Source of the DNA: an uncultured Candidatus Rokubacteria bacterium
Lineage (GTDB): Bacteria > Methylomirabilota > Methylomirabilia > Rokubacteriales > DASRDR01
DNA length: 64,000 nt
Assembly: GCA_963708025.1 (NCBI GenBank)
Contig: CAVPSB010000013.1
Location: 608,001-672,000 of the forward strand
Reading direction: 5' to 3'
Position numbers and translations under genes: made by a program. Positions 53,225 through 56,992 of this stretch are shown in pieces (positions within the stretch are counted from its first letter, which is position 1; the number at the start of each line of letters is the position of its first letter). Below the pieces are notes generated by a model. It worked only from the letters and a program-made list of their open reading frames with translations, searched no databases and was not told the DNA's origin.

Positions 53225-54613
53225 TTAGAGCGGGCACTGGCCGAAGTGGGTCGGCCCGTGCTTGAGCAGCAGCTTGTTGGCCAGGACCTCGTCGGCGACG
53301 GCGCGCCCGGCCGCCAGCCCGGCTTGGTTTCCGCTGAGATTGAAGTGGATCCCGCCGACCACCCGCGAGATCCCGGCCTCTTCCGCGGCCGCCGAGAAGC
53401 TGGGATACGTCCGCTGGGCAAAGGGCACACCTGAGGCTGGGATCGAAGCCAGTTTGACCTCGACCGCGTCATTGCAGAAGACGCCGGCCAAGGACCCGGG
53501 CGGCAGCGGCGCTGAAGGAGCTGTGACCGGACCAGTGCTCCGGCGAGGTGCCGATGCCAGCAGGGAGTGCGCGTCCAGCCCAATCCGGGTCAGCAATGGT
53601 GTTGTCATTGCCGTCGGTGTCGGCCTCCCGGATGGCAGTGAACGGCCGCCAGAAGCGTAAGTGAACTTCGTCTGGTAGGTCGGGGCCACGGTGTCGGCCA
53701 TGGCCATGCTCACCAGCGCGAACAGCCGCGCGGTGTCCGCCAGGTGGAGGTCCGCCTCCGTCGGACACCGCGGTCGTGACCTGGAGCCACGCCCCCGGCC
53801 GGCTGGTTCGTGTCTCCGCCCAGGCCCAGAAATTGAACGTCGCGAGCTTGGCCGCGTCGGGGATGGCGGCGTTGCCCAGCAGCTTCTCCTCGGCGAACGT
53901 AGCGGCGTAGTCGAGGCTCGCGAGCGGCGGCGGCCCCGAGCTGACGTAGGCGACTCGGTTGAATACTCCACTATCCGGGCGAGGTTCAGACGAGCGGATT
54001 CGCGATGGCGAAGGGCGCCAGGTAGCGGGGCTGAACACCCGACCGGCTCGTCCGGAAGATCCCCGTCGGGTCTGGCCGACGAGCCAGCCGGCTGCGTCTC
54101 GCGCGCCGCTGATCCCGTCATCCACGCGCGCCATGAGCACCTCGAGCCCGACGTGCTCACCCCAGTCTTCCCGGCCGTGACCCGCGGCCCGGAGCCGAGC
54201 GCCAGGTCGGGGCGAGCTGGGCTCGTCGTCGAACTCAGGACGAGGTTCGGCTGGGGTCGGGAGGGAACAGGCCGCACAGGACGGTGTGGGCCGCCGCGGC
54301 GGCCGCCGCGACCGGATGACCGAGCGCCGGGGCCCCGGTCGGCGGCACCAGCGCGTGCTGGCGGTCGATCAGGGTGAGCTTCGAGCACGATGCCGTTGAC
54401 CGCGTCGTACATGGCCACGTTGACCATGGCGTACGTCCGGGCGGCCTTCGCGTCGCTCAGGTTCTTGGTACGAGCCGTCCGAACGCGCACCTGATTCCAG
54501 GTGCGGATGACGTCGCCCGACTGGAAGAAGGTGGCCGCCCCGTCGGGGACGCCGACGGCCAGCGTCAGCAGCAGCGCGGTGAGAGTAAAGAGCCATCTCG
54601 CCGTACGGTTCAC
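53225..54613 (-). pseudogene. Secreted vanadium-dependent haloperoxidase/PAP2-like gene with multiple frameshifts
   Basis: Signal peptide; AMVNVAMYDAVNGI, ARLFALVSMAMAD, KFTY/RFWRP, SPEHWSGHS, AAEEAGISRVVGGIHF across several frames. Confidence 0.8.
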
Positions 54614-54899
54614 GAACGCCCTCCCTTTCTGAAGCCTTCGGGTTGAACCTCGAACCCGACCGCACTCTTCGCGTGTCGTTTTTCGGGAGTGCATTTCTCA
54701 TTCCTGAGATGCCGGCGACGTCTCGGGCCGTCTCAGTGTTTACACTGACGCCGCCAAAGCCCCCGGGACCGCACGGCTTTTGTCCGTACGAGAACTCCAC
54801 GGCGTCCGGGCGACGACACTCGACTTCCGCGGCCCGGGCGTTTGATCGCTGCCGAATTTTGTTGTACAACCGGGACAACCTGGCACAAGGAGGGGACCC

Positions 54900-56015
54900 A
54901 TGCCATCGGGACGAACGGCCGCGCAGATCGGGTTGGCCATCGTGGGGGGAGGCCGGATCGGCCTCATCCGGGGGGAGATCGCGGCCCGGCATCCGAGCGT
55001 CGGGTGGATCGGCCTCGCCGAATCCCGGGCCGACCGGGCCAAGGAGGTCGCCGAGCGGATCGGCGCCGATTTCGTGACGACCGACCACCGCGAGCTGCTG
55101 GCGCGGCCCGAGGTGACGGCGGCCGTCATCGCCACCGACGAGCACCTCCACGTCGATCCCGTCCTCGCCGCGGCGGAGCGAGGGCTGCCCCTCCTCATCG
55201 AGAAGCCGCTCGCCACCACCCTCCGGGAGTCGGCCCGCGTGCTGGAGGCGATCCGGGCCTCCGGCGTCGACGCCGTCGTGGGCTACACCCAGCGGTTCCG
55301 CCGCCGCTTCCTGGCCGCCAAGGAGAAGCTGCGGACCGGCCAGCTCGGCGACGTGACCCTGGTCACCTCGCGGGCCTTCATGAACCGGCTGGTGGCGCTC
55401 GACAACTACCGGCGGACCGACCGGCCCGAGACGATCTCGCCCATGGTCATCTCGGGCACGCACGCGCTCGACCTGGTGATGTGGCTCCTCGACGGCAAGA
55501 CCCCGGCCGAGGTCTACGCCCGCTCCGTGGACCGCGTGCTCGGGCCGTCGGTGCGGGGCATCGACGCCACCGCCGGCCTGATCACCATGACCGACGGGAC
55601 CCTCTATCACCTCAACATCTCCTGGGCGCTGCCCACCGTGTGGCCGGGCTCGGTGTACAGCCTGGAGATCGGGATCGTCGGGACGGACGGGGTCCTCACG
55701 ATCGACGACACCCACCGCGACGTGATTCTGGCCACCACCCGACCCCAGGCCGCAGGATACACCCCGGAGTCCACTCGCCACGTTGACTTCCTCACCAGCT
55801 ACCCGCCCGGCAACGTGGCGCTGGGCGAGCTGTGGGGGCCGATGCGGGAGGAGACCCAGGCCTGGCTCGGGCGCGTGGCCCTGGGCCACGCGACGCCGCA
55901 CGCGACGGCCGCCGAGGCCCACGACCGCCTGATGCTGACCAAGGCAATGGACCTCTCGGCCCGGCTGAGGCGCCCGATCCCGCTCCCGATCACGCCCGAC
56001 GACGAGACGCGCTGA
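54900..56015 (+). CDS. Gfo/Idh/MocA family oxidoreductase
   Basis: LAIVGGGRIG, LIEKPLA, VGYTQRF, GTHALDL. Confidence 0.92.
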   Translation: MPSGRTAAQIGLAIVGGGRIGLIRGEIAARHPSVGWIGLAESRADRAKEVAERIGADFVTTDHRELLARPEVTAAVIATDEHLHVDPVLAAAERGLPLLIEKPLATTLRESARVLEAIRASGVDAVVGYTQRFRRRFLAAKEKLRTGQLGDVTLVTSRAFMNRLVALDNYRRTDRPETISPMVISGTHALDLVMWLLDGKTPAEVYARSVDRVLGPSVRGIDATAGLITMTDGTLYHLNISWALPTVWPGSVYSLEIGIVGTDGVLTIDDTHRDVILATTRPQAAGYTPESTRHVDFLTSYPPGNVALGELWGPMREETQAWLGRVALGHATPHATAAEAHDRLMLTKAMDLSARLRRPIPLPITPDDETR

Positions 56016-56038
56016 GCGGCTGCGCGGGGAGGGCCGCC

Positions 56039-56548
56039 ATGACGAGCGATCCTACGCGGCGCGGCCTGGACCCCACGATCACCAAGCGCGAGGTCGTCTT
56101 CACCGTGACCGTGGAGGGGGTGACCCCGTTCCTGAAGGTCGCCACCGCCTGCCGCAACGGCGAGGACTCTTACACCTTCGTGTCCGACGAGGGCCCCCTC
56201 CTCGGGGGCCTCGGGTCGGCGCCGCCGCCCCTGGCCTACTTCAGCGCCGCCATCGCCTTCTGACTCATGACCCAGGTGTCCCGGTACGGGCACATGCTGA
56301 AGATGCGGGTGGACCGGATGCGCATGCACGTCACCGCCCGGTACCGGGTCGACGGCTCGGTGCTGAACGACACCATCCAGGCCCGGATGGTCGGCGTCGA
56401 GACCCGGCTCGAGCTCGACTCCCCGGAGCCGGTTGACCGGGTCGCCCGCCTCGTCCGTAACGCCGAGCGGGGCTGCTTCGTCATGCAGGGGCTCCTCGAG
56501 CCGGTCCCGATCGCGGGCACCACGCTCCTGAACGGCCAGCCGCTGTGA
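56039..56548 (+). CDS. OsmC-like protein with in-frame UGA (probable selenocysteine at codon 75)
   Basis: SDEGPLLGGLGSAPPPLAYFSAAIAF-TGA-LMTQV...NAERGCFV; frame continues across TGA 56261-56263; GGAGG RBS before ATG 56039. Confidence 0.85.
56273..56299 (+). promoter_or_regulatory. Candidate bacterial SECIS hairpin
   Basis: CAG-GTG(T)CCC-GGTAC-GGGCAC-ATG-CTG; upper stem starts 12 nt after UGA, bulged U, G-containing loop. Confidence 0.7.
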
Positions 56549-56992
56549 ACGCCCGGCTGCGGGCCCTTCTCCTCGCGACACTGGCCCTGAGCCTCCTCCC
56601 CGTGCCGATCGCCGGCGCGCAGCCGGCGAAGGTGCCCCGCGTCGGGCTCCTGGGGGTCGGTTCGGCCGAGGCGTCGCCGCTCTTCGAGGCCTTCCGGCAG
56701 AACCTCCGCGAGCTGGGCTACGTCGAAGGTCAGAGCATCGCCTTCGACGATCGCACCAAGGTCGAGCAGTACAGCCGCCTTGCCGACGTCGCCGCCGAGC
56801 TGGTCCGGCTCAAGGTTGACCTGATCATGGCGTACGGGACGACCGCGACCCACGCGACCAGGAAGGCGACGCGGACGATTCCGATCGTCATGGTCGACGG
56901 GGCCGACCCGGTCTCAACCTCAAGACCGCCAAGGCGCTCGGGCTGACGGTCCCGCCGTCGCTGCAGTTCCGCGCGGACCAGCTCATCGAGTG
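56545..56992 (+). pseudogene. ABC_sub_bind protein with large internal deletion
   Basis: N-terminus to TIPIVMVDGADPV joined out of frame (~56912) to [26 protein letters not shown]. Confidence 0.8.

Follow-up and report, generated by a model that had tools for sequence, protein, structure and literature searches.

An OsmC-like gene of an uncultured Candidatus Rokubacteria bacterium with an in-frame UGA that is very probably decoded as selenocysteine

Two open reading frames (ORFs) on the forward strand of a contig from an uncultured Candidatus Rokubacteria bacterium (GenBank assembly GCA_963708025.1, contig CAVPSB010000013.1) are parted by a single TGA, which raises the question of whether they are the halves of a broken gene, two unrelated small ORFs, or one gene in which UGA is translated. 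We refer to the whole stretch of DNA that was analysed, 64,000 nucleotides long (positions 608,001 to 672,000 of the contig), as the window, and give positions within it unless a contig or locus is named. The mechanical ORF list holds the same-frame pair 55832..56263 and 56267..56548, one on either side of the TGA, and an initial annotation of this DNA proposed that the pair encodes one hidden OsmC-like selenoprotein of 169 amino acids. The ORF list and the translation agree with that account of the frames: codon 75 is an in-frame TGA (56261-56263) that shares its frame with the ATG at 56039 and with a terminal TGA (56546-56548), and translating it as U yields a product of 169 residues containing DEG, LGGLGSAPPPLAYFSAAIAF-U-LMT (AIAF-U-LMT) and C146 within AERGCFV, so that the motifs quoted in the initial annotation, AIAF-U and the second Cys in AERGCFV, are present as described.

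The boundaries of this gene differ somewhat from those of the listed ORFs. The GTG with which ORF 55832..56263 opens is a mechanical start lying upstream of the real one, which is likely the ATG at 56039; orthologs support this choice, as the Met aligned with it is their own start (for example in L041 and L034). They also end at about the same place as the terminal TGA, four of them with TAG. A GC hairpin follows the terminal TGA at only 3 nt, which is not the spacing of a SECIS element. The features of the locus are collected in Table 1.

Table 1. Features of the OsmC-like locus, in window positions.
Feature	Position	Strand	Basis
Shine-Dalgarno-like GGGGAGGG run of putative function, ending 5 nt before the ATG	56026..56033	+	Sequence inspection
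Single CDS for an OsmC-like selenoprotein (predicted), 169 codons including Sec75, then TGA stop	56039..56548	+	ORFs, Pfam, NCBIfam, AF2/Foldseek
In-frame UGA, codon 75, very probably read as Sec; opens U-L-M-T (UxxT)	56261..56263	+	Conserved TGA column
SECIS-type hairpin: GUG / bulged U / CCC, loop GGUAC, GGG / CAC; codons V80-H85	56276..56293	+	Covariation, synonymous constraint
TGC codon for Cys146 (AERGCFV), candidate resolving cysteine	56474..56476	+	Alignments
Terminal TGA, the true stop; overlaps GTG 56545 of the next ORF	56546..56548	+	ORF list, stop usage

Profile and structure searches place the read-through product among OsmC-like proteins. The Pfam OsmC model (PF02566) matches residues 58-158 at 45.7 bits (cut-off 27.5), and the NCBIfam model NF041052, named "OsmC-related (seleno)protein", scores 158.3 bits for the whole protein and 149.5 bits in the genome scan (cut-off 95); the NCBIfam models for OsmC proper (TIGR03562) and Ohr (TIGR03561) gave no match at E <= 0.1. 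An AF2 model built from a 22-row alignment (mean pLDDT 84.4, pTM 0.75) returned 64 matches at E <= 0.001 in a Foldseek search of the PDB, the top matches listed all being OsmC/Ohr folds and the best of them 2onf_A (E 2.7e-9, TM 0.63/0.75). By sequence profile, the nearest solved relative is PDB 3cje (E 5.6e-18, residues 13-157 aligned). Within the family the candidate redox residues stand in well-conserved surroundings: the residues U75-L-M-T78 form a UxxT motif whose T78 is invariant among 13 orthologs, and C146, equally invariant in these, aligns with the GCF of 3cje and with the second Cys of L029, a two-Cys paralog whose cysteines align with U75 and C146 and which belongs to the OsmC superfamily while scoring below every NCBIfam subfamily cut-off. 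The 13 orthologs share 36 invariant columns, distributed on both sides of codon 75.

The initial annotation had suggested aligning homologs in search of Cys or TGA at codon 75, and these are what the alignments contain. When 61 genomes of the same family and order were searched with the NF041052 HMM, over-cut-off matches occurred in 13 genomes and each (13/13) held exactly one TGA; once these orthologs were extracted and aligned, the TGA occupied one shared column in all 13. In a phylum-wide sample of 201 genomes, 41 matches exceeded the cut-off, spread over 39 genomes; one of these matches came from the unpublished genome G119, and exactly one TGA was again present in every match (41/41). A pattern scan taking one genome per species added 80 loci from MAGs labelled Rokuibacteriota/Methylomirabilota, Binatia, Deltaproteobacteria, Tectomicrobia, Chloroflexota/Dehalococcoidia, Pseudomonadales, Verrucomicrobiia and Planctomycetaceae; 79/80 have TGA at the aligned position, a count skewed toward Sec forms since the hairpin also encodes one of the two patterns used for the scan (QV[SA]RYGHM), and 1/80 has TGC (Cys). 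This single Cys form, L121, is a full NF041052 member (172.1 bits). More distant paralogs carry Cys aligned with U75 in nine of nine cases, and since Cys stands there in these paralogs too, the codon-75 column is the sole invariant column of the 22-row alignment.

Protein databases present the family largely in pieces. Among the 120 best matches, 114 are C-terminal fragments of ~95 aa with 53-55% query coverage, named "hypothetical" or "OsmC-like". Four of the few full-length proteins, known as protein entries only, have S (P0002), L (P0003), W (P0011) or C (P0004) at position 75, and two further full-length entries, P0020 and P0109, are without the region. Each of S, L, W and C lies a single-base change away from TGA, and the four entries represent clusters of one or two sequences; we take them to be either errors or rare variants for which we have no explanation.

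Contigs assembled from four public runs, which are not raw reads and derive mostly from relatives (90-99% alike), show no alternative letter over 56261-56263; among the contig pieces listed, only X2 record 11 (56221-56411) extends at least 31 letters to both sides of the TGA. The RNA-library contig X18 (56023-56271) fails to bridge the UGA by the tool's criterion and so does not demonstrate expression. In two soil/bog metagenome runs the summed contig depth rises to a sharp peak over 56251-56304 (268-286 in X1 and 633-756 in X3, as against tens elsewhere), and the position of this peak on the TGA and hairpin fits the presence of many organisms with identical bases there.

Whether the organism could insert selenocysteine was another point that the initial annotation had raised, and the genome holds all four of the genes it named. 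The window lies on contig C13 of its assembly (G000; 8.17 Mb, 49 contigs, rated 8.18% contaminated). On contig C32 we found tRNA-Sec (selC; 76.2 bits, cut-off 47), which ARAGORN likewise calls tRNA-SeC with anticodon TCA, adjoined by both selA (597.8 bits) and selB (371.9 bits, model positions 2-581), and on contig C7 selD (398.4 bits); selA, selB, selC and selD all exceed their curated cut-offs. The three contigs are compositionally alike (GC 0.709-0.721, tetranucleotide r 0.997-0.998). Otherwise TGA serves as the commonest stop of the window: of the 111 stop-to-stop frames with 300 codons or more it ends 77, this gene and three of its neighbours included, which excludes a reassigned genetic code.

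The selD gene lies at C7:91381-92304 (locus L019, TGA at 1531), and a single in-frame TGA falls within its motif GAG-U-ACK, which makes SelD probably a selenoprotein as well. Counted from the U of UGA, the apical GG occupies positions 24-25 in the selD hairpin, as placed by a single fold, and positions 23-24 in the OsmC-like hairpin, which fits one SelB reading both elements. A second selD-like match (C23:88505-89419, L020; 270.3 bits) has no stop, lies inside an open frame of 833 aa and may be a fusion. In a Dehalococcoidia MAG, a selA gene (L119:484-1989, minus strand; PF03841, 427.7 bits) is found ~1 kb from the OsmC-like selenoprotein gene.

The stem-loop that the initial annotation described, starting 12 nt past the TGA with a bulged U and a GGUAC loop, is seen as it was stated. 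It consists of 3 bp, the bulged U, 3 bp and the loop, and evaluates to -6.3 kcal/mol, the MFE of the 18-mer being -7.5. Its stability is unexceptional: a 66-nt stretch had z = +1.26 relative to dinucleotide shuffles, 182 of 200 of which fold at least equally well, and of 5000 synonymous versions of the 33-nt core, 6.3% match the native sequence in folding. By folding energy, then, the hairpin does not exceed chance in this 71% GC genome, whereas by conservation it does. An Rfam scan of 55900-56700 at E <= 10 returned nothing at the hairpin and only a chance sRNA match, Xoo5, at 17.4 bits (cut-off 50). RNAalifold found no consensus pairs in an ungapped alignment of 45 sequences, probably because loop lengths vary (4 or 5 nt).

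Covariation was accordingly counted on two hand-written structures over the 45-row alignment and compared with 500 shuffles. For the structure of the initial annotation, 82.2% of cells are paired as against 69.0% in shuffled alignments, and the covariation score is 0.262 as against 0.092, values that no shuffle reached in either case (0/500); both sides of the pair change in four of the six pairs (3/500 shuffles). A second register, in which a 3' base is bulged, performs about equally (83.8% paired, covariation 0.254 vs 0.167 shuffled), and a slide of +2 attains a covariation of 0.276, yet with only 65.2% of cells paired; as these score similarly, the lower stem has no single clear register. 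A test that needs no assumed structure points the same way: in 42 Rokubacteria-like genes, codons 80-85 have a mean synonymous entropy of 0.232, compared with 0.955 for 106 other conserved codons, and form the lowest of 77 six-codon windows, the strongest synonymous constraint in the gene. The TCCCGGTACGGG bases are invariant across the 13 close orthologs, while neighbouring synonymous sites vary. The proposal of a SECIS-like hairpin 3' of the UGA is thus upheld by its conservation and covariation rather than by its energy.

Comparison across clades bears on what is being conserved. The 80 loci contain 44 distinct TGA-form sequences, of which 43 fold a hairpin at one position (MFE -7.0 to -14.3 kcal/mol); the exception, L080, is without it (-3.1), and the Cys form L121 has no hairpin structure at all (MFE 0.0). 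The stem takes the form GUGUCCC/GGGCAC where V-S-R-Y-G-H is encoded, AUUUCCC/GGGGAAAU for I-S-R-Y-G-E, CGCUC/GAGCG with a GGUC loop for I-A-R-S-S-E, and UGAGC/GCUCA for I-E-R-Y-A-Q; in other words, it is kept across clades despite differences in the encoded peptides (SRYGH, SRYGE, ARSSE, ERYAQ).

These results can be set against two other accounts of the TGA. It might stem from faulty sequencing or assembly, or from a nonsense mutation of recent date; the locus would then amount to a damaged OsmC-like gene or to a pair of small ORFs that have nothing to do with each other. The initial annotation mentions other defects in the window, a remark found in that annotation alone, and gene callers do split the locus, with 114 of the 120 best matches covering 53-55% of the query. 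An error or a young mutation is nevertheless hard to reconcile with a TGA at this codon in 13/13, 41/41 and 79/80 independent assemblies, with strong protein conservation on both sides of it (the 36 invariant columns of the 13 orthologs), and with contigs of four runs that carry no other letter there; the comparative data effectively refute it, and we give it next to no credence. The UGA might instead be read through without Sec, either under a reassigned code or with Trp, Gly or Cys inserted through near-cognate decoding. The W of P0011 and the C of P0004 would be in keeping with this, either of which may stem from a TGG/TGC variant or from the use of a different code in translation. Such decoding seems very improbable where TGA is the stop of 77 of the window's 111 long frames and where the genome holds a complete selABCD set; moreover, Cys is the sole sense codon met in DNA at the site, and simple read-through needs no hairpin under RNA-level selection. 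Decoding as selenocysteine, which the initial annotation had put forward, is favoured by the TGA/Cys column, the Sec machinery, the covariation of the hairpin and its synonymous constraint together, and on these comparisons of sequence 56039-56548 is very probably one gene whose UGA at 56261-56263 specifies Sec.

The genomic neighbourhood offers limited guidance as to function. In the window, its neighbours are two oxidoreductases of the Gfo/Idh/MocA type and part of an ABC substrate-binding protein (133 aa), none of them conserved beside the gene; when a conserved operon partner was sought in 92 loci, these recurred at 2, 10 and 2 of the 92, respectively, and a downstream fumarylacetoacetase-like ORF recurred at none (0/92). 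The 133-aa ORF (56545-56946, plus strand) begins with a GTG that overlaps the OsmC-like stop (GTGA), and its TrpX-like match (28.8 bits) covers the N-terminal third only; as the N-terminal third alone is matched and the next gene starts from 57010, it looks like a truncated remnant. The Gfo/Idh/MocA gene comes within ~70 bases after the OsmC-like gene in the closest relative, L050, and within ~110 bases after it in L049. Elsewhere in the window, 53225-54694 and neighbouring frames hold long overlapping ORFs on both strands, with low-complexity Arg- and Pro-rich translations. At 18 of the 92 loci (within L091-L115), all from the Binatia/deltaproteobacterial clade, the OsmC-like gene is followed on its own strand, at a distance of no more than a few hundred bases, by a gene for a thioredoxin-TPR fusion, whose product is a plausible reductant in that clade; no such gene was found beside the OsmC-like gene of the window.

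Some relatives carry, at loci L129-L133 (G049, G043, G008, G053 and G030), a second and different OsmC-like gene with one in-frame TGA, which scores 50-60 bits to NF041052. It contains the motif LG-x-U-TSMT and a later C-P-V-H, and a GC-rich hairpin lies ~15 nt past its TGA. The genome scan found no second OsmC-like TGA copy in the window's own genome.

If the UGA is recoded during translation, the hairpin at 56276-56293, with its G-rich apical loop GGUAC, would serve as a bacterial SECIS and recruit SelB carrying Sec-tRNA(Sec), the latter presumably produced by SelA and SelD on the selC tRNA that this genome encodes. Sec75, in its UxxT motif, would then take the place of the peroxidatic cysteine, close to where the long central helix begins, and Cys146 (GCF) that of the second cysteine. 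Sec75 could attack a hydroperoxide and be converted to a selenenic acid, which Cys146 would resolve into a selenenylsulfide, and a thioredoxin-like or other dithiol donor might re-reduce the latter. By analogy with its relatives, thiol-dependent hydroperoxide reduction is the chemistry that we consider the most likely option, if by no means a secure one; we know of no NF041052 member with a measured activity.

The protein may alternatively be a true selenoprotein whose Sec/Cys pair does other redox work, for instance in thiol-disulfide or selenenylsulfide exchange with one particular partner, or in the handling of reactive sulfur or selenium species. We regard this as a real contender, if a less probable one: neither the OsmC-proper nor the Ohr NCBIfam model matches, the neighbours vary by clade and include no conserved peroxide-stress gene, and a thioredoxin-TPR gene downstream in 18/92 loci would fit any role in thiol exchange. 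Hydroperoxide reduction is favoured over such roles by the placing of the redox pair at the positions of the two OsmC-superfamily cysteines, by a fold that matches the OsmC and Ohr peroxidases, and by the UxxT motif, which is also that of glutathione peroxidase. The motif is given for glutathione peroxidase in PMC1088965 as well. A more specific proposal, which we offer tentatively, takes together the near-obligate use of Sec by the NF041052 lineage in the genomes searched (41/41, 79/80), a SECIS within the coding sequence that seems to dictate the conserved S-R-Y-G, and the nearby thioredoxin-TPR gene of one clade, and holds that these proteins may form an uncharacterised thioredoxin-coupled seleno-peroxidase for which Cys is a poor substitute for Sec.

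The main value of this locus lies in annotation. Standard gene callers cut the gene at the UGA, and because genes are split in this way, the selenoproteomes of soil and groundwater phyla, for example Rokubacteria-type relatives, are under-counted. The locus also adds a well-supported case of a hairpin selected as RNA and as coding sequence together, and points to a family with a strong preference for Sec over Cys. The window gene itself raises no new question. It is an ordinary member of an already known selenoprotein family, with nothing essential to set it apart, and its novelty is low given that OsmC-like selenoproteins with UxxT were reported in 2005 and that an NCBIfam model is named for the family. 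A literature search for selenoproteins of Rokubacteria gave nothing related.

Set beside known systems, both the RNA element and the protein have clear counterparts. In the fdhF-type SECIS of E. coli, the hairpin begins ~11-12 nt past the UGA, has a bulged U in its 5' strand and a loop beginning with GGU; the window's hairpin has the spacing, the bulged U and the GGU loop start in common with it, and some relatives even have a GGUC loop, whereas the loop in the window has five bases (GGUAC) and the lower stem varies between clades. As for the protein, PDB 3cje (the OsmC-like Jann_2040 of Jannaschia sp. CCS1) aligns its Cys-x-x-T with U-x-x-T and its GCF with GCF, but differs in having Cys for Sec, in its ~27% identity, and in being without the hairpin-encoded SRYG peptide. 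The OsmC/Ohr two-cysteine peroxiredoxins (TIGR03562 and TIGR03561; e.g., PDB 1nye and 1n2f) share the fold and have redox residues at equivalent alignment positions, whereas identity to the solved OsmC/Ohr structures is only 12-19% and the AF2 model has an extra N-terminal beta-hairpin region of ~45 residues.

The closest counterpart is the OsmC-like selenoprotein family with a UxxT motif that a 2005 survey of the Sargasso Sea metagenome described (Zhang, Fomenko and Gladyshev; PMC1088965), and which a table of a 2026 review also includes (PMC13188914). The initial annotation was therefore right to recall earlier reports of OsmC-like selenoproteins, as that survey and the name of the NF041052 model attest. 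Judged by its sequence motif, NF041052 is probably the family of the 2005 survey, with which it has in common both UxxT and, as the survey describes it, a SECIS of bacterial type whose small apical loop contains G (PMC1088965). The balance of forms is where the two sets of data part: in the survey's counts for the Sargasso data, Cys forms of the OsmC-like family outnumber Sec forms by 10 to 3 (PMC1088965), whereas the NF041052 subfamily, in the genomes searched here, almost always has Sec.
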